NCBI GenBank assembly: GCA_048882325.1
Contig: JBHLRS010000003.1
Span: 82,279-146,278 of the forward strand
DNA from: Candidatus Thorarchaeota archaeon
GTDB taxonomy: Archaea > Asgardarchaeota > Thorarchaeia > Thorarchaeales > Thorarchaeaceae
Reading direction: 5' to 3'
DNA length: 64,000 nt
The position numbers and the translations under genes are program-made. The notes beneath the pieces are model-generated. The model had not been told where the DNA came from, did not search any database, and worked only from the letters and a program-made list of their open reading frames with translations. Position 1 is the stretch's first letter; each line of letters opens with the position of its first letter. Positions 3,919-29,078 of the stretch are shown here, piece after piece.

Positions 3919-4857
3919 ATTTCAGAGCACAAATCAGTATCAGAACCTGAATTACTAGGAGTCATTGATAGCCCCCCTTCAATCCGCTCAATCACTGCTC
4001 TTTCAACTGATGACAGGTGTCTCTACTCAGCAGACGATGATGCTATGATTACCGTTTGGAAGAAATCCAATCTTCGGACCTTTGAACAGTTTCAAAGCAA
4101 AAGCAGTACTTACCTGAAATCACTCCTAGTTGATGATCACTACCTATATGGTGGGACTCTCTGGAATGATTGTAGCATCAAATTATATGACAAATCAAGT
4201 TTGGAACTACTCAATAGTTTTGAGGGATCTCAGGGCACAGTTTTTGCTCTCGTGTCTGACCACAGCAACCTCTTCTGCGGTTCTGGAGATTCAAGAGTGA
4301 CTATTTGGAACAAGGATGACTGGAGTGAATTAGGAAGTTTTAGAGGTCAGAAACACTTCGTTCTCTCACTCTCTATCGATGAGAACTATATCTATGCAGG
4401 AGGAATTGACGATTGCACAAACGTCTTCTCTCGGGATGATCATAGTCAAGTAGTTTCACTAAGAGGGCATGAATCCAATGTTCTTTCGCTGGCTTGTGAC
4501 AAGAGGTTTCTGTATTCAGGTTCTGGCGAACTTTGGTGGGGCGGACCTGGCTCACCGCGACCGCCGCAATTTGAAAGTGCCATTCGAGTTTGGGATAAGA
4601 AAGACTGGAGCTGTGTTGCTATTCTTGAAGGACATACTGACAATGTCAATGCAGTATCTGTAGCCTCCAACTATGTCTTTTCAATCTCTGATGATTCAAC
4701 TCTGCGGATTTATTCCAAAAAGGATTGGAGTGAAACACTCTGCGTACATGTTGATACCAGACGAATCGATGCAATGACATCTGATGATAGGTCAGTCTTC
4801 ATTGGTTGCGCTGATGGAACAATTCGTCAACTATCAAAACATGCTATTATCTCTTAG
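3919..4857 (+). CDS. WD40 repeat beta-propeller protein
   Basis: About 7 repeats of GH...LYSGS.D..IRVWD; the first repeat (SITALSTDDRCLYSADDD) lies upstream of the ORF-track start at 4045, so the start is placed tentatively at ATT 3919. Confidence 0.8.
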   Translation: MSEHKSVSEPELLGVIDSPPSIRSITALSTDDRCLYSADDDAMITVWKKSNLRTFEQFQSKSSTYLKSLLVDDHYLYGGTLWNDCSIKLYDKSSLELLNSFEGSQGTVFALVSDHSNLFCGSGDSRVTIWNKDDWSELGSFRGQKHFVLSLSIDENYIYAGGIDDCTNVFSRDDHSQVVSLRGHESNVLSLACDKRFLYSGSGELWWGGPGSPRPPQFESAIRVWDKKDWSCVAILEGHTDNVNAVSVASNYVFSISDDSTLRIYSKKDWSETLCVHVDTRRIDAMTSDDRSVFIGCADGTIRQLSKHAIIS

Positions 4858-5422: not shown

Positions 5423-5725
5423 GTGTCGATAAGAGCTGGAAGGACTCCCAGAAGCACATTTGAGATTCTCGGTGCTTTAATCACTCATGGACCCATGTGT
5501 CCTAAGGAGCTAAGCAAAAAACTTGACATGGCTCCCCGTACTGTTAGCTTCGCACTTAGGAAACTGCTGAGTGAGAAGATTCTACGCAGAATTCCGAATC
5601 TATACGACATGCGCCGCCCCAAGTATCAGGTGAATATGGAGCAAGCCCGCCATCTGTTGGAGAAGTACAGAGACACTCCCTATGTGTCTGCTCTGTCTCC
5701 TGTTGTATGGAGAAAAATGGCATAG
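5423..5725 (+). CDS. Small winged-helix (MarR/ArsR-like) regulator
   Basis: GPMCPKELSKKLDMAPRTVSFALRKL HTH and wing DMRR; GTG start at 5423 preferred. Confidence 0.75.
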   Translation: MSIRAGRTPRSTFEILGALITHGPMCPKELSKKLDMAPRTVSFALRKLLSEKILRRIPNLYDMRRPKYQVNMEQARHLLEKYRDTPYVSALSPVVWRKMA

Positions 5726-5729
5726 ACTA

Positions 5730-6857
5730 TCATTTTTTCCATTGATCATAAAGTTGGATTGCTCGCTCAATTCTCATGCTGTGCGCAAGCGGCAGAATAT
5801 CAGCTGCGGGTAATGATTCTACATTGAGCGATTGAAGGGACATTGCTTTTGCATCAGTTAGATACTTGACCAAGACAGAATCTTCGACGCTTCCATCAGT
5901 CAAAAGCTGATTCAATGAATTCAAACCAATCAAGGCATCATCAATAAAGAAGGCGAGTGCCAATCCTCTTAGGAATATCGTTTCTGATCCCTGTTCTTCT
6001 GGGTCCACCATTAGACTGATGATTCTGCATATCTTTGATCGAGATTCAGATGTCTGCTCATGGATAGCTTCACCTGATATAAATCGATTAATTTGATCCA
6101 TCAAATCCTGATACAGTTCATCGATATGTTCAACCATCTGAGAGATGGGTTTTGTGATATGTTTTCCTTCGGAAGGAGTCCAATCAATCAAATCCATGTT
6201 AATAGATAGGGTGCTTCCACCATCAAAAACTGCATGATGCTCTTCAGCAGGTTCAGCAAATCCTGCTAGTATGGTGAGAAGATCTCTGCCGCAGCAATTG
6301 CAAATCACACCACCCATCACAGTTCGTTCAATTATTTTGAACGATTCAAGAGCATGTTCCGCATCTCTTGCTCTCCGCATCCTTACTCTGCCATCTCTGA
6401 GAATGTGAACCCTGATTTCTTCCATATTTCCCCAGGCATAAGCAAGTTCCTTGCTACATCGCATGTCTTCATATCTGGATGACACACAATCCAAGAGCCA
6501 ACAGAGTATTGCAGGATCAAGCACTCCATACTTCATCATATCGCCAGGATTTACACCATTGAAGATTCTCATCTCAGCCATAAGGAGATCAGGTGAATCC
6601 ATGCAGGGCTTGGAGAGTAGTACACCGCCCTCGGGTTGCTCTGGAGCTGGTTTCTCTGTGTTCTTAGCTTCTCTAACAAGAGCAATGAGGTCATCTCTCT
6701 GAGAAGCGTGTTTCTCCAGAGCAAGGACTGGACAGGATGACACCTCGGCATTTTCCACGATGACTGCCCTGGCAAAGGCTCCACAAGTTGTATATCCACA
6801 TAAACCGCAATCAATCTCAGGCGTGTTTTTTCTGCTTTTTGTCCAGACACTACTCAT
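5730..6857 (-). CDS. Protein with N-terminal Fe-S cluster (FeS/PF04060-like) domain
   Basis: DCGLCGYTTCGAFA...CP motif plus a later CNCCG. Confidence 0.7.
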   Translation of the reverse strand: MSSVWTKSRKNTPEIDCGLCGYTTCGAFARAVIVENAEVSSCPVLALEKHASQRDDLIALVREAKNTEKPAPEQPEGGVLLSKPCMDSPDLLMAEMRIFNGVNPGDMMKYGVLDPAILCWLLDCVSSRYEDMRCSKELAYAWGNMEEIRVHILRDGRVRMRRARDAEHALESFKIIERTVMGGVICNCCGRDLLTILAGFAEPAEEHHAVFDGGSTLSINMDLIDWTPSEGKHITKPISQMVEHIDELYQDLMDQINRFISGEAIHEQTSESRSKICRIISLMVDPEEQGSETIFLRGLALAFFIDDALIGLNSLNQLLTDGSVEDSVLVKYLTDAKAMSLQSLNVESLPAADILPLAHSMRIERAIQLYDQWKK

Positions 6858-7141
6858 TCGTCACAATCCTCAGTCATCCAATCGTAAGTTCATTTGGAGG
6901 ACCATAGAATCCGTATGTTGTCATTTTCAATGGTCATAAACAACTCAATATGAGAGATTTCTCTGTGTCTAAAAAAAGCAATGTCTTCGGCCAATTCTTG
7001 GAAAACCCATTTCGGAAGCTACTTGTTCGGAAAACTACGCATTAATTGAAAATCGTCGTCAATTTCAGAACAATGCTGTTGACGCTAATAGAAAACAGTA
7101 ACATGTCATTATCTTATTGGCGAATATCTTTGCGACTTGCT

Positions 7142-7390
7142 ATGCGACTACCCAAAAGTGCTCTTCATATACTCACATTTCTCACAAAAAGCGGACCACT
7201 CCCTCCAAGAGTAATAAGTAAGGAAGCTAATGTGCCGCTTCGAACTGTGACCTTTACTTTAGACCGTTTAGTGAACACGGAAATCTGTGAGAGAATTTCA
7301 AACCTTAGTGATATGAGACGTACGCTCTATGTAGTAAATCACGAGAAGGCAAGAGCAGTCTTTGCTAGATATGACATGCTGGTTAAATAA
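7142..7390 (+). CDS. Small winged-helix regulator, paralog of 5423-5725
   Basis: GPLPPRVISKEANVPLRTVTFTL...NLSDMRR; ATG at 7142. Confidence 0.7.
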   Translation: MRLPKSALHILTFLTKSGPLPPRVISKEANVPLRTVTFTLDRLVNTEICERISNLSDMRRTLYVVNHEKARAVFARYDMLVK

Positions 7391-7409
7391 TCGCAAGAGG
7401 TTGTAGATC

Positions 7410-7790
7410 GTGATGAACTACTCTGAATTGAAGTCGAGGTGCAGAGATGCAATGACATGTTCTGCCAGTGAAGAAAATGAGGAAATGTCTTCAGTCCTTT
7501 GTCAAAACGATTGGGTTCGGATACTCACAGTTCGTGATTCTGACACTATTGGTCTATGGAGAATTGAGGTGGAGGTTTCGCTTCCTTTTCAAAAAGATCC
7601 TGTGTCTGGAAAGAATGTAAAACACTTTGTTCAAGACCTCATCACACATCTTGAGTATCTTCTTAGACTTGACAATGAAGGATTGACACTGGGAGTGCTA
7701 TCCCGTGATGGTCTTTGGACTGCATCTCTCGAAATTGATGACCTACCAGAAGACAATCTGTTCAAAGCGCTCATACCTCCTTATGTGTAA
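7410..7790 (+). CDS. Hypothetical protein
   Basis: 126-aa ORF with SD-like GAGGT upstream; no family recognised. Confidence 0.55.
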   Translation: MMNYSELKSRCRDAMTCSASEENEEMSSVLCQNDWVRILTVRDSDTIGLWRIEVEVSLPFQKDPVSGKNVKHFVQDLITHLEYLLRLDNEGLTLGVLSRDGLWTASLEIDDLPEDNLFKALIPPYV

Positions 7791-7864
7791 CTGATTTTTC
7801 CTATCTAGCGAGTTTTTTATGAGGGCTGCATTCATGGAATAGTATATCCATTGGTTGTGTTTCC

Positions 7865-9886
7865 ATGAGTTTCGACATATCAAAAGGGATGACTATCAAG
7901 CTCTCTTCCGGGCTTCCACCAGAACCTGTTTTTGATCCACAATATCGCAGAGCCCCAAATCGAGGGTATGACCTATCACCAGCTGAAACTGTTGTGGCAG
8001 TAAAGAATGCACTTCGATATGTACCTAAGAGTCTTCATGAAACTCTTGCTCCGGAGTTTCTAGAAGAACTTATGACTCGAGGTCGAATCTACGGCTATCG
8101 ATATCGTCCCGCTGGACTAATCAAAGCAAAATCCATCGATGAGTACAAGGGCATACTAGAAGCTCGAGCGCTGCAATTGATGATTGACAACAACCTAGAT
8201 TATGATGTTGCTTTATATCCTTACGAACTTGTGACGTACGGTGAGAGTGGTCAGGTATGTCAGAACTGGATGCAATATCGATTGATTATGAAATATCTTG
8301 AAACGATGACAGACGACCAGACGCTAGTAGTCAGCTCGGGGCATCCCGTAGGTCTATTCCCCTCACATAGGAATGCACCGCGGGCTATATGCACAAATGG
8401 ACTCATGGTTGGGATGTTTGATACACTTGAAGGGTTTCACCATGCTGCAGCTATGGGTGTTGCAAACTATGGTCAGATGACTGCAGGTGGTTGGATGTAC
8501 ATAGGCCCTCAAGGAATAGTCCATGGAACCTACATCACGCTTCTGAATGCAGGACGCATGTATCTAGGAATTCCTGATGGTAGAGATTTAAGTGGAAAAG
8601 TGTTCCTGACATCTGGACTTGGTGGGATGAGTGGCGCCCAGGCTAAGGCTGTGGAAATAGCTGGAGGAATTGGTATCATTGCGGAGGTTGACAAGAGTCG
8701 TATCAACACACGCAGCGAACAAGGTTGGTTAAGTAAATTCTCCTCGGACCTAGATGAGATCTTTAGTTGGGTGGAGGAGTATCGATCAAGCAGTGATCCG
8801 GTTTCTATTGGTTACTATGGTAATGTAGTTGACCTGTGGGAGTATGTGGTGAAGAACGGAATCAAGATTGAACTGGCATCAGATCAAACCTCCTGCCATG
8901 ATGTCTATGGTGGAGGATATACACCACAGGGAGTGTCATTTGAAGAGGGCCGAGAACTGCTTCGAACAGATAGAACACGGTTTGATGAACTTGTCAACCA
9001 GTCCCTCCGCAGGCAGTTCGAACTCATAGAAACAATGACCAAGCAGGGGACCCACTTCTGGGACTATGGGAACAGCTTCATGAAGGCTGTCTTCGATGCT
9101 GGTGTGAAAAGAATCGCAAAGAATGGAGAAACCACATCTGATGGATTCATCTTTCCATCCTATGTTGAGGATATCATGGGACCACTTTGCTTTGACTTTG
9201 GCTATGGCCCCTTCAGGTGGGTATGCCTTAGTGGGAATCACGAGGATCTAGTGGCAACTGACAAGATGGCAATGTCACGAATCAATCCCGACCGCCGAGG
9301 TCAAGACAGAGATAACTACATCTGGATTAGGGATGCTGAGAAGAACGAGTTAGTGGTCGGCTCTCAAGCCCGTATTCTATATGCAGATGCCTTAGGTCGG
9401 GTAGATATCGCACTGTCGTTCAACAAGTTGGTCAGAGAGAAGAAGGTTGGTCCCATTATGTTGGGCAGAGACCATCATGACACAGGAGGTACCGACTCAC
9501 CCTTCAGAGAGACCGCCAACATTCGAGATGGTAGTAACGTCATGAGCGACATGGCCCATCAATCTTGGGCTGGGAATGCTGCTCGTGGGATGACACTTTG
9601 TGTTCTGTCAAATGGCGGTGGTGTCGGAACAGGGAAAGCAATCAATGGTGGATTTGGTCTGGTGCTTGATGGTAGCGAGCGAGTCGATAAGATCATCCAG
9701 TCTGCTCTTGATTGGGATGTGATGGGAGGCGTCGCACGTCGTGCGTGGGCTAGGAATGAAAATGCAATTGAAACTGCCATAGATTGGAACAAACGCCTTG
9801 GGCCGAACGGGCAAATCTCGCTTCCCTTTCTCTCAGAGAAGGGTTTAGTAGAGCGTCTAGTTGAGGAAGCACTCAAAGAGGTATGA
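7865..9886 (+). CDS. hutU: Urocanate hydratase (long type, 673 aa)
   Basis: NNLD..VA..PYELVTYG, YGQMTAGGWMYIGPQGIVHGT, GLGGMSGAQ, DQTSCH, GRDHHD. Confidence 0.97.
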   Translation: MSFDISKGMTIKLSSGLPPEPVFDPQYRRAPNRGYDLSPAETVVAVKNALRYVPKSLHETLAPEFLEELMTRGRIYGYRYRPAGLIKAKSIDEYKGILEARALQLMIDNNLDYDVALYPYELVTYGESGQVCQNWMQYRLIMKYLETMTDDQTLVVSSGHPVGLFPSHRNAPRAICTNGLMVGMFDTLEGFHHAAAMGVANYGQMTAGGWMYIGPQGIVHGTYITLLNAGRMYLGIPDGRDLSGKVFLTSGLGGMSGAQAKAVEIAGGIGIIAEVDKSRINTRSEQGWLSKFSSDLDEIFSWVEEYRSSSDPVSIGYYGNVVDLWEYVVKNGIKIELASDQTSCHDVYGGGYTPQGVSFEEGRELLRTDRTRFDELVNQSLRRQFELIETMTKQGTHFWDYGNSFMKAVFDAGVKRIAKNGETTSDGFIFPSYVEDIMGPLCFDFGYGPFRWVCLSGNHEDLVATDKMAMSRINPDRRGQDRDNYIWIRDAEKNELVVGSQARILYADALGRVDIALSFNKLVREKKVGPIMLGRDHHDTGGTDSPFRETANIRDGSNVMSDMAHQSWAGNAARGMTLCVLSNGGGVGTGKAINGGFGLVLDGSERVDKIIQSALDWDVMGGVARRAWARNENAIETAIDWNKRLGPNGQISLPFLSEKGLVERLVEEALKEV

Positions 9887-22255: not shown

Positions 22256-23035
22256 TTAGTAATAGCTTACATCCGCATCCTCAGCATCATACGTTGAAAC
22301 ATGAAACGCTGTTGCCGAATATTCCGAAGCCAATTTGGCCATAGCCAGTGTGATAAGATGAGGTCCCAGAGTTAAGTCAAACACTAGATTGTGGGTTGGC
22401 AGATGATTAAGAATCTCGTTCTCAATGAACTCGTAGGTCTTCTGTAGATTGCCATAATCAAGTTCATCCACGCCTCCCATGACTTGTTCAGGGACTTCTT
22501 TCCACTCAGTTGTCCACACACGAAAGGCATCGTCTGGAATGAACCTGTCCATAATACGAGAAACCCCACGGGTCCAGTGAACAGCCTCGACAAAGACAAG
22601 GAGTTTCTTTGGATTGAAGTGCGGATTGTTCACTAACCATTGCACGAATGGCCGTTGATCCTCTGGATTATTCAGCGAAGTAACATACATTAGCGGTTTT
22701 GAGATTCCAAGAGCTCTACGAACCGGGTGTATTGCTCTGGGATCCAATTCAAAAAGGCGGTACTGAGATTGTTTCCAACTGACTATGATTCCAAGCTCCT
22801 CCAGACGGCGGGTGTTATGGTAAAGCTTGGGACTTGTCACCTTGACCTTTGCAATCTCTCTCTTGCTTGCACCTTCCGCGACCATTTGTGCCTTGGTGTC
22901 AGTAGTGATTTTCTCCCTGAGCTCTGCTCCTGTCATCAATCCCCCTTCAAGCTGATCGAGGATGATTCTCCTGGCCCGTACTGTTTCAATCTCTTCGCGA
23001 ATTATGTCCTCAACGGATTTCCTGAGCAACTTCAA
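22256..23035 (-). CDS. wHTH plus C-terminal CARF-like Rossmann domain regulator
   Basis: KLYHNTRRLEELGII wHTH; LMYVTSL, KKLLVFV, LVFDLTLGPH..TLAMAKLA....AFHVS. Confidence 0.6.
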   Translation of the reverse strand: MKLLRKSVEDIIREEIETVRARRIILDQLEGGLMTGAELREKITTDTKAQMVAEGASKREIAKVKVTSPKLYHNTRRLEELGIIVSWKQSQYRLFELDPRAIHPVRRALGISKPLMYVTSLNNPEDQRPFVQWLVNNPHFNPKKLLVFVEAVHWTRGVSRIMDRFIPDDAFRVWTTEWKEVPEQVMGGVDELDYGNLQKTYEFIENEILNHLPTHNLVFDLTLGPHLITLAMAKLASEYSATAFHVSTYDAEDADVSYY

Positions 23036-23284: not shown

Positions 23285-24424
23285 ATGGCTGAAGACGAGT
23301 TTCTTGGCGCAAAACCAATTGTCATCGACAATGGTACTGGTTTGAGCAAGAACGGTTACGCCGGCGAAGATCAGCCACGCAGCGTTTGGCCCACACTGAT
23401 TGGTTACCCACGTTATGAGTCAATCATGACTGACGTGGATCACTACACACGTGACTACTACATCGGTGAGGAAGCAATCAACCTCCGTGGTGTGCTCCGT
23501 CTGGTCTATCCGATCTCTCACGGAATCGTAGAAGATTGGGATGCTATTGAGAAAATATGGAGCTACACATTCTATAACGATCTCAAGGTGGACCCAAGCG
23601 AGAACCCGGTACTTCTTACTGAAGCACCATTTAACCCTAGAGAAAACAGAGAGCGCATGGCATCAGTCATGTTTGACAACTTCGGCGTTCCTGCCGTGTA
23701 CGTTGCCACACAGGCTGTATTGTCACTATACGCATCCGGTCGAACCACTGGTCTGGTCATTGACTCAGGCGATGGTGTCACCCACATAGTACCAATCTAT
23801 GAGGGCTTTTCAATCAACCACGCTATCCGAAGAATTGACCTTGCTGGTAGAGACATCACCGAGTATCTGCGCAGACTTCTCCGTCAGAGAGGCTACTCAT
23901 TCGTGAGCGGTGCAGAGAAAGAGATCGTCAGAGATGTCAAGGAGAAGCTATGTTACGTAGCTCTCGATCCCGAGAGGGAGAGGACAGTCGCTGACAAGGC
24001 CGGTGTTGACAAGCCTTACATGCTACCAGACGGTGAGGTAATCACTGTTGGAGCAGAGAGGTTCCAGGCACCCGAGCTGTTCTTCAACCCAAGTGCCATT
24101 GGTCTAGATACAATGCCACTCGACGACCACATTGTCGAGTCTATCAAGGCCTGTGACGTCGACTTGAGGCGTGATCTATACGCCAACGTCGTTCTGTCAG
24201 GCGGTTCAACAATGTTCCCAGGGCTCAAGGAGAGGCTCCACAAGGAGATCACCGAACTAGTCCCAGAGAACATCGAGGTCCGAATCATTGCTCCTCCAGA
24301 GAGACAGTATTCTGTCTGGATTGGTGGAAGCATTCTCGGCTCACTGAAGACCTTCCAGAAGATGTGGGTCTCCAAGAAGGAGTTCGAGGAAGTAGGACCT
24401 GAAGTGATACACCGCTGTATCTAG
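23285..24424 (+). CDS. Asgard actin
   Basis: [74 protein letters not shown]; ATG at 23285; C-ending codon bias suggests high expression. Confidence 0.97.
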
Positions 24425-24443
24425 AGTTCCCTAGTTTCCGAAG
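24391..24443 (+). repeat. Direct repeat copy 1 (actin 3' end and stop region)
   Basis: 46/53 identical to 26843-26895 by manual alignment. Confidence 0.85.
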
Positions 24444-24465
24444 GTGGGCTGCAAGGCCCCCTTCG
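24439..24465 (+). terminator. Hairpin after actin followed by a pyrimidine tract
   Basis: CGAAGG(T)GGGC-TGCAAG-GCCCCCTTCG, then TATCTCTTTCTTATT. Confidence 0.6.
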
Positions 24466-24475
24466 TATCTCTTTC

Positions 24476-24982
24476 TTATTTCCGATATCTCTGTTGAATC
24501 TTGAAGATAGTAATAACAACGCAACCAATTCCCATTGAAACAAATCCGGTCAACATAACTTCAGGGAAAGGATGTAGGACTCGCACGCTCATTGTGATAG
24601 TATTGTTTCCTCCATCATCTGGTATTGCCACGACGCCATATTTTCCAGGCGGAAATTCAGTTATAGCCTGTCTGAAATAAGAGATTCCATGATATTCTAG
24701 AAGGGGATTTGTATTCATGATTGATTGTTCTTCAAGTAGCATGAAAGTATCATCAAGCGTGAGTAAGTAAAGCGAGAATTGCCTTGTTGCATTCCAGTTA
24801 TCGTTTGCTTCCAGAAGGAAAGACCCTCCTGAACCGAAGACATACCCAAAATAGACATCACTCTCAAGAGGTACTGGGGGCCCATAGACATGAATGGAAA
24901 AACCTGTGAATGAAATTGCTATCAGTGAGAACCCAATGATTAGAAACAAGAATCCAATACGTTGTTCAATCCTCATCTTCAC
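24476..24982 (-). CDS. Membrane protein with N- and C-terminal TM helices
   Basis: Two hydrophobic segments flanking a beta-rich domain; coupled to the ABC permease. Confidence 0.65.
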   Translation of the reverse strand: MKMRIEQRIGFLFLIIGFSLIAISFTGFSIHVYGPPVPLESDVYFGYVFGSGGSFLLEANDNWNATRQFSLYLLTLDDTFMLLEEQSIMNTNPLLEYHGISYFRQAITEFPPGKYGVVAIPDDGGNNTITMSVRVLHPFPEVMLTGFVSMGIGCVVITIFKIQQRYRK

Positions 24983-25788
24983 ACCTCCGCTGATTTTAGA
25001 GCTCTGTAACTAAGAAAAAGCATAGTTAAGCCGACAATGAAAGTCACAATGATAGAGAACATCACGTTGGAATACAGTTCCTGTATGTTCCCATAGACTC
25101 TCATATTCATGACCAAAATAATTGGATTGATGAATGATGTAATTCCACTTGGAAAATCAGGAGTGGCAAGAAGTAGGGACAATCCATACCAGATTCCAAT
25201 TCCTACAAGTGCTGATGGGAGCGTCTTTTTCAGAAAGACCGAGATTATGGTCATTACAGAAACCATCAGAATGATGTGTGCCCAGAATGCAAGTGATAAT
25301 GCAAACAAGGCGGATATCGAATAAACCCCAGGGATTGCTAGGTAAACTGTTAGAACTAAAGCCACAGTTGTGGTTACACCAATGATGGTTATTGGTATCA
25401 GTGTCTTGAAGAGAAGAAGCCGTCTACGTGGAATTGGATATGTTAGCATGGTCTGGAATATACCTTCTTCGAAACCTCTTGCTACATTATATGCGATTAG
25501 CAGAGGAACCAGAAAGGCAAGAACTAAGGTGACACGATATGCTGACATACCAAAGACATAGAGTGCGTGTTCCTGTACGCGATCGAAAACGAACATCATG
25601 TTTGAATATGCAAATTCAGGTTCATTGGGCCAAGTCTGTATGATATCTGCATATCTCACGGCGAGGTCCAAAGACGAAGCCACTGAAACAAACACAACGA
25701 TTGCAATGATACATTCAAGAACTGGGAACCTATAGTTCACCTCGAATTCATACTCAAGTGATGCCCTGAGATTTTTTAACTCACTCAT
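24979..25788 (-). CDS. ABC-2 type exporter permease
   Basis: About 6 TM helices; ARGFEEG.FQTMLTYPIPR motif. Confidence 0.85.
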   Translation of the reverse strand: MSELKNLRASLEYEFEVNYRFPVLECIIAIVVFVSVASSLDLAVRYADIIQTWPNEPEFAYSNMMFVFDRVQEHALYVFGMSAYRVTLVLAFLVPLLIAYNVARGFEEGIFQTMLTYPIPRRRLLLFKTLIPITIIGVTTTVALVLTVYLAIPGVYSISALFALSLAFWAHIILMVSVMTIISVFLKKTLPSALVGIGIWYGLSLLLATPDFPSGITSFINPIILVMNMRVYGNIQELYSNVMFSIIVTFIVGLTMLFLSYRALKSAEV

Positions 25789-26704
25789 CTCTCATCACCT
25801 CTCTGAATGCATCCTCTAAGGAATCTGCATTCTCGAATGCGTAAACTGTGATTCCAAGATCCTTTGCTATTCTTTGAACCTCAGCTTTACTAGCTTCAAT
25901 AGAATCTGACGCGAAACCTGCAGTGATAGTGTTGGTGCCAACAACCTTTGGAAACTGTATTCCTTCAAGACTCTCTATTGCTCTGAGGAGCTCCCTTGCA
26001 TTAGATGTGACGATTCTGAGATGATCAGCTGTGTGTTTTGCAATTGTTTCTCTTGTTTCTCCACTTGAAACATGCTTTCCCCTTTTGATGAATGCAATTG
26101 AATGGCAGGACCTTTCCACCTCAGACATGATATGGGATGAGATAAAAAATGAAACTCCTTGTTCATCATACAATTCAGTTAAGATACTCACTATGTCATC
26201 TCTACCAATTACATCAAGATTTGCTGTGGGTTCATCCAAGAATACAATCTCTGGATTTCCAACTAGCGCATGAGCAATCCCTAACCTCTGATACATACCT
26301 GCTGAGTAAGTACCAATTCTTCTATCCGCTGCATCTGTAAGATTCACTAAATCAAGTAATTTCTCTGCTGGTTTTTTCTCCCGATAGAGTCTTCCAGCCA
26401 TCTCAAGGAACTGTCTTCCTGTGATTGTTTTCGGGAGCGCTGGACGTTCATGAAGAACCCCAACCCTCGATCTAATCTCAAGAGAATCCTTTGTTACATT
26501 CAATCCTAGAACAGTTGCAGTTCCCGAGTCCGGTTTTAACAACCCTAATAGAATTCGAAGGAGCGTTGTTTTTCCTGCTCCATTCGGACCAATGATTCCT
26601 GTAATTCCTCTTGGTATTTCCAAATCTAGTCCATCTAGAGCCCTGACTGGGCCAAACGATTTGGTCAATCCAGTTATGCTTACCACTGTTTCTGATTGAA
26701 CCAT
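25781..26704 (-). CDS. ABC-2 exporter ATP-binding protein
   Basis: GPNGAGKTT, YSAGMYQR, LDEPTANLD, SSHIMSE, SLEDAF. Confidence 0.92.
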   Translation of the reverse strand: MVQSETVVSITGLTKSFGPVRALDGLDLEIPRGITGIIGPNGAGKTTLLRILLGLLKPDSGTATVLGLNVTKDSLEIRSRVGVLHERPALPKTITGRQFLEMAGRLYREKKPAEKLLDLVNLTDAADRRIGTYSAGMYQRLGIAHALVGNPEIVFLDEPTANLDVIGRDDIVSILTELYDEQGVSFFISSHIMSEVERSCHSIAFIKRGKHVSSGETRETIAKHTADHLRIVTSNARELLRAIESLEGIQFPKVVGTNTITAGFASDSIEASKAEVQRIAKDLGITVYAFENADSLEDAFREVMRDE

Positions 26705-26842
26705 TGTAAACAGCTCATTGGTGAATTGTGAACGGAAGGTTCCTTCTCTAAAAACTCGGGGAACAATCTACTGATAGAATTGGAATACATTTATAGATTT
26801 CATGTAATCAAAGGAGTTTCTATCAAGTTTTGGAATATTCCG

Positions 26843-26895
26843 AGTAGGATTCGAAGTGATACACTGCTGTGGCTAGAGTTTCCTAGTTTCCGAAG
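26843..26895 (+). repeat. Direct repeat copy 2 (degenerate actin 3' end)
   Basis: agtaggattcgaagtgatacactgctgtggctagagtttcctagtttccgaag, compared with copy 1. Confidence 0.85.
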
Positions 26896-27065
26896 AGGAT
26901 TTGCTTCCCTTTCACTCTTTTGCTTTTCTACCGTTGCAATCTCTTGTATTGCTGTACGATTTATTACTGCCCGATTTCCATGAAATGTTAGTGGTACATT
27001 CCACGAAGGGAGAAGTGGAAAATCACATCTATTGGACTCCAGAATCAGAACAATCTGGACCAACA

Positions 27066-27500
27066 ATGAATTGGTGGAGAACCATAGTCCTAGTTCTAAA
27101 TTGTGCCTTTGCTATCTGGTTCTCTGTCCTATTCGTTCAATTCATCTTTCACTTCTGGCCCAACATTATACCAGCAGCTATACTTCCTGTTCTACCTTGG
27201 CTCAGTTATCACAATAAATACAAAGAATTCGAAGAATCACATCATAAGGGTGCGACTCCTAGACTCGACATGGGACATGATTTCATTACCCTATTCTTGA
27301 ATCTGACAATTGGTGTAACTCTACTGGTTGTGATTCTGGAATTATCAACAGAACTCTATGACTATCTCTATTACTTCTGGTTCATTCTGGTGTTCATGAC
27401 GCTAGCCACCAACCTGGAAACACTTGCCTCAACCTTCGCATACATTTTGTTCACTAGAAGAAATAAGGAATCAATAGAAACACCTGACAAAAACTCTTGA
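27066..27500 (+). CDS. Small multi-pass membrane protein
   Basis: About 4 hydrophobic helices; ATG at 27066 preferred. Confidence 0.55.
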   Translation: MNWWRTIVLVLNCAFAIWFSVLFVQFIFHFWPNIIPAAILPVLPWLSYHNKYKEFEESHHKGATPRLDMGHDFITLFLNLTIGVTLLVVILELSTELYDYLYYFWFILVFMTLATNLETLASTFAYILFTRRNKESIETPDKNS

Positions 27501-27502
27501 AT

Positions 27503-28048
27503 TCACACTTCTTGGGTTTGATCCGTTCTCCACAATCTACGCAGAACCGAAATTTGCCCGATGTGCATTGCCTCATGCTCTATCAAATGAAATAGTATCC
27601 ATTCTATACTCACCTTCTCTGAATCTACATCGATTATTGAATCAAGGTTCTCATCAGATAGGGTCTTCAAGAAGTCGAACACCTCCTCGCGAACTTCCTT
27701 TAGTCGCGAGAGATAGAATTCCACACTTTCTCCCGTTATCTGGTCTATATTCTCCCTGAGAGAGAATGCATACTTCCACTTCTCATACTCCATTTCTTTT
27801 CCAGCGATATCCTCTAAGATCCAGCTGTACTCGATAGCAGCAATGTGGATTAACAGAGTCCCAATGGATTCTACCGATTTTCGATCTGGGCTAAAGTCAA
27901 GTGTTTCTTTTGAGAGAGTTTCTACTCGCCTCACTAATCTTCCTCTGGTTCTTTCTAACATTGCGTAGAATAACGCTATACGAGGCGAGAGTTCATTATC
28001 TCTCTCAAGAGTCACAATTTGTTTGGTTTCTTCGGACATATCTCTCAA
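27503..28048 (-). CDS. DinB/YfiT family protein
   Basis: SIGTLLIHIA..E, WILFHLIEHEAMHIGQI. Confidence 0.9.
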   Translation of the reverse strand: MRDMSEETKQIVTLERDNELSPRIALFYAMLERTRGRLVRRVETLSKETLDFSPDRKSVESIGTLLIHIAAIEYSWILEDIAGKEMEYEKWKYAFSLRENIDQITGESVEFYLSRLKEVREEVFDFLKTLSDENLDSIIDVDSEKVSIEWILFHLIEHEAMHIGQISVLRRLWRTDQTQEV

Positions 28049-28130
28049 TCAAATCATCGATTCTTTTGCTATCTATTTGATGGTATGTCTTAATGTACCT
28101 GCATTTACATCTTTGAAATCTTAATGTCAC

Positions 28131-29078
28131 CTACGGTGACCAGTAATAGAACTGCTTGTAGTATTCATCCTCGAAGCCATATTTTCTGTAAAGTTTTTGC
28201 GCTGGGTGATTAGTAATGGTTGTATCAAGACATACACTGGTTGAACCACTATCTTTCAAAATCTCTAAAACCTTGACGAGCAAAAAACTAGCGAGTCCTT
28301 GACCCCTTGCCTTAGGCACAAGTCCAACTGGTCCAATATCAGGTTCACCATCATCCCCAATTCGAGTGATGATAAAGCCAATCACTTCTCCATCTCTCTC
28401 AAGAATCAGCGATGCATCGTCAATGTAGGGATTTGCCTTGTTAAAGAAATACTCTATGGTTACTTTCTGCTCAGGAGGGCTCTGTGACAAAAAGAGGCCC
28501 TCCTTGCTGTCTTTCAGAGTCTGAAAGGCTGGCCCCTCCAGTCTGTCATAAGGCACCTCTGAGAATTCTCTCAAAATGCATTCCTGAGGCTGTTTGATTT
28601 CTGGTAGTTCAATTGTGCTAAGATCAGAATTCATGTGTATCTCTTCTGCTGCAAACTGGAAACCACACTCTCTGTACAAATCAACAATACCCCTCGAGTG
28701 CTGTCTGTGAGAGTCTGATGGCAACTCAAGCTCAATCTCCAATCTGCTATGATCTCTCTCTACAGTATCAACCTTAGCAGCTTCAATCAAGGCATGAGCA
28801 AACTTTTTGGATCTCAAATCCACCACGGGATAGAACCCGCTGATGAAGGTCATAAGAGGAAATGCAACATAGTAATAGAGCCAACCTACAATACTGCCAT
28901 TCTCATAGACTGTCAGTATTCTATACTCATCACTGGTTGATAGGCTTTCGATGCCTTTTGCTATCTCATCCACACCTCGACTAGACTCAAGAGGTGTGCC
29001 CTTTCTTGTTGAAATGGTAAGACGTGCAAGGTCCTTACACTCCTCAAAACTGAGTTCATCAATCTTTACACGAACCAT
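28131..29078 (-). CDS. Tandem GNAT acetyltransferase
   Basis: VGLVPKARGQGLA, NHPAQKLYRKYGF; degenerate N-terminal GNAT (LYRECGF). Confidence 0.85.
   Translation of the reverse strand: MVRVKIDELSFEECKDLARLTISTRKGTPLESSRGVDEIAKGIESLSTSDEYRILTVYENGSIVGWLYYYVAFPLMTFISGFYPVVDLRSKKFAHALIEAAKVDTVERDHSRLEIELELPSDSHRQHSRGIVDLYRECGFQFAAEEIHMNSDLSTIELPEIKQPQECILREFSEVPYDRLEGPAFQTLKDSKEGLFLSQSPPEQKVTIEYFFNKANPYIDDASLILERDGEVIGFIITRIGDDGEPDIGPVGLVPKARGQGLASFLLVKVLEILKDSGSTSVCLDTTITNHPAQKLYRKYGFEDEYYKQFYYWSP

Follow-up and report, generated by a model that had tools for sequence, protein, structure and literature searches.

Eukaryotes have their closest known relatives in the Asgard archaea, of whose ways of gaining genes, to our knowledge, little is known. 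The window analysed here, a stretch of 64,000 nucleotides (nt) from a Candidatus Thorarchaeota archaeon (assembly GCA_048882325.1, contig JBHLRS010000003.1), poses this question at a single locus, at which the 3′ end of the actin gene is present twice, with the three genes of an ATP-binding cassette (ABC) exporter lying between the two copies. Does this repeat record the arrival of the exporter genes at actin, and by what route would they have come? The first part of the question can be answered firmly, in that the 53-nt repeat is a true insertion scar of a three-gene ABC-exporter cassette directly behind the actin stop codon, and the cassette is one unit of a Thorarchaeaceae-wide array of variable cassettes of one to four genes. 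The route can be named with less assurance, the most probable one being a replacement of the actin tail guided by homology.

The repeated actin end in the source genome

The segment at 24391-24443, which comprises the last 31 coding bases of actin, the TAG stop codon and 19 bases beyond it, is repeated directly at 26843-26895, as found by a repeat search in the window, the two 53-nt copies matching at 46/53 positions (87%) with a spacing of 2452. A 23-mer from the repeat has two matches in the window against none expected from 100 shuffles. In the whole assembly of the source genome (3.6 Mb, 93% complete, and labelled G000 in the following), BLAST finds the actin end at only these two places, the second copy with E = 9.6e-12, and a profile of the actin end (nhmmer) returns the same two copies and no other significant match. 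Chance similarity, a dispersed repeat and a common terminator motif were rejected on these counts. According to the profile, the distal copy reaches 26928 and encompasses the stop codon, a spacer, a hairpin remnant and a T-rich tail, the remnant having a folding energy of -5.7 kcal/mol vs -19.0 kcal/mol for the live terminator hairpin. The same layout of actin, cassette, second copy and next gene recurs in two other NCBI metagenome-assembled genomes (MAGs) and in five Logan run assemblies, with 99.6-99.98% identity across both junctions, and these seven independent assemblies rule out a misassembly.

The features that make up the scar and the cassette are as follows, in window coordinates.

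23285..24424, plus strand: actin gene, anchor of the array; 379 amino acids from the ATG at 23285, TAG at 24422-24424, Pfam Actin 1.2e-132
24368..24479, plus strand: live (primary) copy of the tail module, with the last ~16 codons and TAG, a spacer at 24425-24438, a hairpin at 24439-24465 (CGAAGGTGGGC...GCCCCCTTCG) and a T-rich tail; 105 bits with nhmmer over profile positions 1-113
24476..24982, minus strand: cargo gene 1, small membrane protein of 166-168 amino acids, without Pfam family
24979..25788, minus strand: cargo gene 2, ABC-2-type permease of 269 amino acids, weak PF12679 match
25781..26704, minus strand: cargo gene 3, ABC transporter ATPase of 307 amino acids, first in the operon, PF00005 4e-29
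26705..26842, minus strand: upstream region that belongs to the cassette and precedes the ABC operon; minus-strand TATAAAT at about 26790-26800, a putative promoter element judged from its letters
26843..26928, plus strand: displaced (secondary) copy of the tail module; it begins within the actin codons at -31 and has its TAG at 26874-26876, followed by a spacer, a decayed hairpin that starts at 26891 and a T-rich tail; 39.9 bits with nhmmer over profile positions 24-113

The original prediction, which had been made from the letters of the window, is reproduced as regards the repeat itself, the decayed hairpin and T-tract behind the distal copy, and the three opposite-strand genes for a membrane protein, a permease and an ATPase, which Pfam supports. 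It had further described these genes as AT-richer, which they are not: the GC content is 0.39-0.43 in the cassette, 0.39-0.46 in the surrounding genome and 0.46-0.53 in actin, so that the outlier is the GC-richer actin gene, comparison with which had created the impression, and the cassette is without foreign base composition. Its central proposal, that DNA was inserted into the 3′ end of actin and left copies resembling attL/attR, is upheld, since related genomes hold empty-like sites and differing cargo at the same place. The direct repeats bracket the cassette and restore the actin 3′ end, as attL and attR would, the live copy being the one that completes actin. Actin has kept a complete tail and terminator, and the far-end copy at 26843-26928 is out of use and decaying.

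Two other origins of the repeat were considered and rejected. A transposon with target-site duplication would be one without terminal inverted repeats, transposase or a duplication of fixed length: a repeat search found no inverted repeats at the cassette ends, Pfam gave no transposase domains in the cassette, and the direct repeat varies in extent from 53 to 110 nt. A remnant of a tandem actin duplication does not fit either, as the homology stops upstream of -31 in G000 and of about -49 elsewhere. The two copies in G000 have in common a spacer variant, AGTTyCCTAG, which is absent from all others, and their hairpins are of different types; the common variant suggests either a donor of the same lineage or a later gene conversion, as far as the sequence can tell.

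The exporter cassette is not a fixed possession of the group. No orthologue of the permease was found in 60 relatives, the best match being 32% identical, and the only close relatives in the databases are 71% and 69% identical. The small membrane protein of cargo gene 1 has hydrophobic segments at its N and C termini (residues 5 and 139) and 55% amino-acid identity to its counterpart in the homologous cassette of L128. In another Thorarchaeota MAG, a homologous three-gene cassette (69-70% identical), to which one of the two database relatives belongs, lies between a DinB and a Zn-ribbon gene in the same neighbourhood, with no detectable modules.

The array behind actin in Thorarchaeaceae

The source MAG belongs to the genus of SMTZ1-45, AB_25 and OWC2, and its actin shares 93-99% identity with the one actin that genomes of the family have. 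Across the genus, the gene upstream of actin is syntenic and the downstream side is variable. Arrays were sought by comparing the actin end of each genome with its own downstream DNA, and then with a profile covering positions -54 to +62. Of the 26 genus genomes in which the module is present, at least 19 have secondary tail copies behind actin, with three extra copies in G015 and two each in G006, G014, G022 and G043. The secondary copy in G005 shows 100% identity over 76 nt, whereas G013 and G002 are without one and look like empty or decayed sites. Every copy is oriented like actin. Secondary copies are also present in three or four further Thorarchaeaceae genera (three extra copies in G050, one in G051 with 96% identity over 109 nt, one in G046 and a weak one in G049), and the array was found neither in one genome of a neighbouring family nor in two more distant Asgard genomes. 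Contigs from Joint Genome Institute (JGI) metagenomes carry up to seven modules in 10 kb (L136), and in L143 the genes for a GNAT protein, a metallophosphatase and an APH protein are single-gene units, each between full modules. The original prediction had seen in the locus an old relic; the insertion stands, and the idea of a single, lone relic gives way to that of one unit in a row.

The profile score drops with rank from actin, from 100 to 66 and then to 50 bits, and copies far from actin are often reduced to the hairpin and the T-run, the coding part having been lost in old units, from which it appears that additions occur adjoining actin and that older units decay outward. In one contig of another genus (L127, G050:C13), at about 1075-1170 in actin orientation, a 30-nt insert ending in TAA follows '...TFQK' and is succeeded by a complete tail copy from -60, actin as assembled would be 20 residues short at its end, which reflects either a scar of insertion at the array edge or a join made in assembly between module copies. 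Many MAG contigs stop inside actin or within ~1.3 kb beyond it (the actin contigs of G001, G006, G007, G008, G016, G019, G020 and G003), so that the array apparently breaks short-read assemblies and array sizes are underestimated.

The row continues beyond the displaced copy in the source genome, and the gene on the other side of actin is conserved.

27015..27500, plus strand: next unit of the row, a membrane protein of 161 amino acids; start at 27015 after gene calls in other assemblies
27503..29078, minus strand: DinB-family and GNAT genes (Pfam), older, semi-fixed members of the row
22256-23035, minus strand: gene of 259 amino acids, divergent from actin, no Pfam match

The 161-amino-acid protein has 33% identity to an open reading frame (ORF) of G005, which is itself the cassette between the 100%-identical tail modules mentioned above. 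A GNAT gene directly follows a module in L143, G016_C187 and G020_C424, and a partial module follows DinB in G018. The synteny of the 259-amino-acid gene with actin is kept across the whole genus, and in distant Asgard genomes too, at 23-27% identity.

The repeated module is of ~108 nt and consists of ~49 nt of actin coding sequence (the last ~16 codons), the stop codon, a ~15-nt spacer, a GC-rich hairpin of 9-11 bp and a T-run, CTCTCTTGTTTTT. Its hairpin exists as several types of sequence related to one another by compensatory changes (e.g. GGTGGGC/GCCCCC and GAGGGA/TCCCTC), and most copies have kept it, with mean energies of -16.9 kcal/mol in live and -13.9 kcal/mol in displaced copies. Third-position diversity in the last 48 nt of actin is 0.21 vs 0.18-0.31 upstream, without excess synonymous change, and the spacer past the stop codon is highly variable (0.53).

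Modules are spaced 230 to 4483 nt apart (median 874), most of these intervals containing a single gene, and the cargo ORFs lie on both strands (27 minus, 24 plus) and have their own upstream regions of 70-230 nt. Besides the ABC exporter, which occurs in G000 only, the cargo includes an ArsR regulator with an S15 peptidase, a DUF1801 protein, a nitroreductase, a deaminase-TPR protein, an HD-radical-SAM protein of 1038 amino acids, a HepT/MNT toxin-antitoxin pair, a transglutaminase-like protein, GNAT, DinB, DUF998, CitMHS and APH proteins, and many proteins without an assigned family, most of which have N- and C-terminal hydrophobic segments, like surface proteins. One cargo family is found at varying ranks and in varying orders between genomes. 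In L050 (G015:C244), a four-gene cassette at 5444-8493 (190, 215, 175 and 440 amino acids) lies between two full modules, the neighbouring cassettes encoding the deaminase-TPR protein and the 1038-amino-acid HD-radical-SAM protein; a PD-(D/E)xK-like motif (D...IELK) was spotted by eye in the 175-amino-acid protein, and the cassettes of this contig are possibly defence genes.

Candidate routes of cassette acquisition

The rows behind actin have the features of displacement arrays, namely a conserved upstream anchor, variable downstream modules, orphaned old 3′ parts, and no dedicated recombinase detected. The model preferred here, to which a probability of roughly 0.55 is given on comparative grounds, is an integrase-independent, homology-guided replacement of the actin tail in which the old tails would be displaced outward. 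The incoming DNA, derived from a related cell, would bring an actin 3′ part with its tail and terminator, then the cargo, and then a displaced tail copy. Ordinary homologous recombination would follow, with the long conserved actin gene serving as the left arm and the tail module of ~100 nt as the right arm, an equivalent route being a circle that enters by a single crossover inside the module. New cassette types would arise in rare founder events, by homology-facilitated illegitimate joining next to the homology anchor, as has been proposed for the arrays of the type VI secretion system (T6SS) in V. cholerae (PMC5361080). Each addition would land adjoining actin and shift the older units outward, where their modules would decay. 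The original prediction had kept another recombination route only as a fallback behind an integrase; the fallback is the better reading of the two, the particular route being the one proposed here.

The T6SS effector-immunity clusters of V. cholerae, together with Rhs loci, are displacement arrays attributed to homology-facilitated illegitimate recombination (Kirchberger et al. 2017, PMC5361080). As in the actin arrays, a conserved upstream gene is the homology anchor, new modules adjoin this anchor with the old 3′ parts being orphaned outward, and ordinary homologous recombination spreads the variants without a site-specific recombinase. The likeness has its limits, since those arrays displace immunity genes and toxin C-termini that are under selection, whereas the actin arrays displace non-functional tails with terminators, and their cargo is unrelated to the anchor gene.

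The junctions of the nitroreductase cassette show which parts of a module accompany which cargo. This cassette occupies the first place after actin in G006 and G016 and the second place in G022; in its four contexts the homology begins at the left spacer, hairpin and tail, takes in the gene together with its upstream region, and reaches the right tail codons, breaking directly after the right-hand TAG. From these limits it follows that the spacer, hairpin and T-run travel with the cargo on the right, and the left part of the tail codons with the cargo on the left, the switch from one linkage to the other falling within an invariant stretch, GTGATACACCGCTGTATCTAG. Over all modules, the spacer distance is 0.33 between copies with the same right cargo vs 0.45-0.49 otherwise, a weak and confounded signal.

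Some displaced tails carry synonymous variants that depart from the actin of their own genome and agree with that of other lineages, examples being G016_C263 and G011 with CAC-AGG-TGT, and G043_C267, whose TAA-GCG spacers resemble those found in other genera; in G050, the peptide encoded by the displaced tails is unchanged while the codons differ. Such foreign-type tails indicate transfer between species and genera. Furthermore, for several of 18 genus genomes the nearest neighbour of actin differs depending on whether the first 700 nt or the last 300 nt are compared, G000 itself being nearest to G005/G004 by the 5′ part and to G011/G014 by the 3′ part. Judged from these alignments, the mismatch hints at recombination inside actin, and it is as expected if crossovers fall within the gene. 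Replacement of the tail would account for the polarity of the arrays and the direct orientation of all copies, and also for the mosaic modules, the tails of foreign type and the missing recombinases.

It has to be noted that four observations weigh against tail replacement by homology. The left edges of displaced tails in the genus cluster at -49 +/- 3 in spite of unrelated cargo and unrelated flanks, which random illegitimate joins do not predict, which the model does not readily explain, and which hints at a preferred site of breakage or crossover, i.e., an enzyme. Displaced hairpins are often still perfect, and the module could itself be a functional recombination site. Genome pairs with the same first cassette family share no closer actin 3′ parts, though the cassettes in question are old (57-82% amino-acid identity). 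Lastly, the MAGs are 71-99% complete, and a rare enzyme acting in trans could have been missed. The edge clustering and the kept hairpins together keep a trans-acting recombinase or nuclease in place as a rival.

The rival that survives best, improbable as it is overall, is site-specific recombination in trans, in the manner of integrons, of clusters of attC sites lacking integron integrases (CALINs) or of cis-mobilizable elements (CIMEs). Here the module would be an att- or attC-like site, the recombinase would be encoded elsewhere or on a transient element, and circles would insert at the live actin tail. The common left edge for unrelated cargo and the uniform orientation agree with this, as do the hairpins retained with compensatory variants in many displaced copies and the invariant palindromic core, GATACA-CCGC-TGTATC, at the point where the linkage switches from left to right cargo. 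CALINs, many of them arrays without an adjacent integrase, have been reported in Asgard MAGs (Ghaly et al. 2022, PMC9668308), and they resemble the actin arrays in their mostly single-gene cassettes, their repeated, hairpin-forming site of ~60-140 nt, their proximal insertion, and cassettes with toxin-antitoxin genes, as found in chromosomal integrons and represented here by HepT/MNT. Among the Thorarchaeia entries in the available part of the supplement of that work (PMC9668308), which are of g__B65-G9, the SMTZ1-45 genus does not figure.

The differences are nonetheless considerable. The repeat at actin is a host coding end with a terminator and not the R''-L''/L'-R' structure of attC; the actin gene stands at the proximal end, with no attI or IntI; and the cassettes have their own upstream regions and lie on both strands, unlike integron cassettes. 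The attC boxes (RYYYAAC ... GTTRRRY) were looked for in the modules, and GTTTAAC is present in some spacers with no matching GTTRRRY partner, other variants being without GTTTAAC; the reading of the module as attC was rejected, as it is without the R/L box structure. The left edges, moreover, vary overall, occurring also at -31 (in G000), -36, -41, -45, -54 and -60, the core decays like the rest of the module in old copies (loss of the stop codon, indels), and it is the coding part that old units lose and the hairpin and T-run that they keep. The tyrosine-recombinase model PF00589 has no match in G000 or in 20 of the 28 genus genomes, array-bearing ones included, and none adjoining any array, serine recombinases not having been searched genome-wide; in the other 8 of 28 it does match, mostly on short contigs, and never on a contig with actin or a module. 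The same model also leaves a XerA-type chromosome-dimer resolvase undetected in G000 and in those 20 of 28 genomes.

A more specific form of this idea, which is to be held rather doubtful and is drawn from the same alignments, is that of a dedicated Thorarchaeaceae gene-capture system that would do an integron-like job built on actin, with the ~108-nt tail and hairpin being the recombination site, cut or exchanged near -49 by a novel enzyme.

Unlikely is a replacement of the tail driven by a homing endonuclease, in which a nuclease encoded by the cassette would cut actin near -50, and repair would copy the donor allele with its fresh tail, cargo and old tail fragment. The architecture fits, point by point, that of the WHO elements behind the aldolase gene FBA1 of Torulaspora and Lachancea yeasts (Coughlan et al. 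2020, PMC7282813), whose arrivals replace the 3′ end of a host gene that is both essential and conserved. In WHO clusters, the decaying 3′ fragments begin at roughly one common position, the newest unit adjoins the intact gene, and the duplicated fragment acts as second homology arm (PMC7282813); the actin arrays likewise consist of tandem displaced 3′ fragments with the newest next to the intact gene, and their left edges near -49 would suit a cut site. The TTCGAA palindrome at -39..-34 (profile positions 16-21) is present in ~13/20 displaced vs 7/27 live tails, the synonymous TTCGAG predominating in the latter, a loose observation from a manual count of 47 copies in which kinship was ignored.

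Several points separate the two systems. The host is an archaeon, the actin fragments are of ~50 nt of coding sequence plus terminator vs ~400 bp in WHO clusters, and the cargo consists of ordinary accessory genes and not of a nuclease, no endonuclease gene having been found in or near the genus arrays. The LAGLIDADG family PF14528, the sole LAGLIDADG family searched genome-wide, is absent from G000 and from the vicinity of actin in the 28 genus genomes, and four free-standing LAGLIDADG genes that were checked lie at unrelated loci without modules. Ten unassigned cargo proteins, mostly surface- or membrane-like, gave no PHROG match, and a nuclease was found among the cargo tested by neither PHROG nor Pfam. 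The identity of WHO alleles falls from 99% to 85% past the cut site, and the arms race predicts fast recoding there (PMC7282813), whereas the 3′ end of actin is without fast recoding; the lack of excess synonymous change in its last 48 nt is more in line with a neutral exchange guided by homology than with an arms race of the endonuclease type. One of the contigs with a free-standing LAGLIDADG gene (L171, G004:C43) has a 44-nt direct repeat (89%) at 1613-1655 and 4482-4525, which brackets 2.8 kb with three ORFs, adjoins the LAGLIDADG gene (446-1162) near the contig end, and may be another gene-end duplication at a different locus.

Very unlikely is the route favoured by the original prediction, that of a classical integrative element or provirus that used the gene end in the way integrases use tRNA genes and later lost its own integrase. 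Integration at tRNA genes and at the 3′-distal parts of archaeal protein genes does indeed leave direct repeats by which the target's 3′ end is restored (PMC6563490), and the 13% divergence of the copy means that the event was not recent. Tycheposons (10.1101/2020.12.28.424599) and the integrated mobile genetic elements (iMGEs) of thaumarchaea (PMC6563490) form integrase-built islands at such sites, and resemble the actin arrays in that the target 3′ end is duplicated as attL/attR, newcomers push older elements deeper into the island, and partial copies of the target occur across the island; those elements have tyrosine recombinases and often replication genes, none of which were found in the actin arrays. 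The absence of an integrase, remarked upon in the original prediction, is confirmed and extends further: Pfam finds no integrase domain in the G000 cassette or in ~60 cargo proteins, and neither an integrase nor a fragment of one was found across ~45 secondary copies in >30 assemblies, plus 33 metagenome contigs. Two apparent integrase matches (tblastn) on metagenome contigs proved to be neighbours of integrases, namely a weak HEAT/DUF6039 protein and a NosD-like protein. The actin-end site was likewise not found in viruses, two scans of IMG/VR, limited to exact matches to degenerate patterns, yielding 0 matches. The units, finally, are mostly of 0.2-4.5 kb and hold ordinary accessory genes.

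A chance resemblance, a repeat or terminator motif that is common or dispersed, and an error of assembly can practically be set aside as explanations, for although the window comes from a MAG and the contigs of many relatives break directly after actin, diverged tail copies are present in >25 MAGs from different studies and assemblers.

Meaning for gene gain in Asgard archaea

No publication on actin-anchored cassette arrays in Asgard archaea was found in the literature searched. The arrays make a single, highly conserved actin gene a fixed address for the addition and reshuffling of accessory genes and for their transfer between species and even genera; transporters, surface proteins, toxin-antitoxin pairs and possible defence genes are among them, and no integrase was detected. 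In practical terms, arrays break MAG assemblies after actin, and caution is in order when Asgard neighbourhoods linked to actin are read as functional.

If the tail is replaced through homology, any conserved gene end can become a site of gene capture where mobile-element enzymes are few; if an enzyme is involved, it would be a new one. In the case of a dedicated capture system, actin would be a programmed landing pad, mostly for cell-surface and defence genes. The rows of displaced tails, for their part, are a built-in record of the order in which the genes were acquired.

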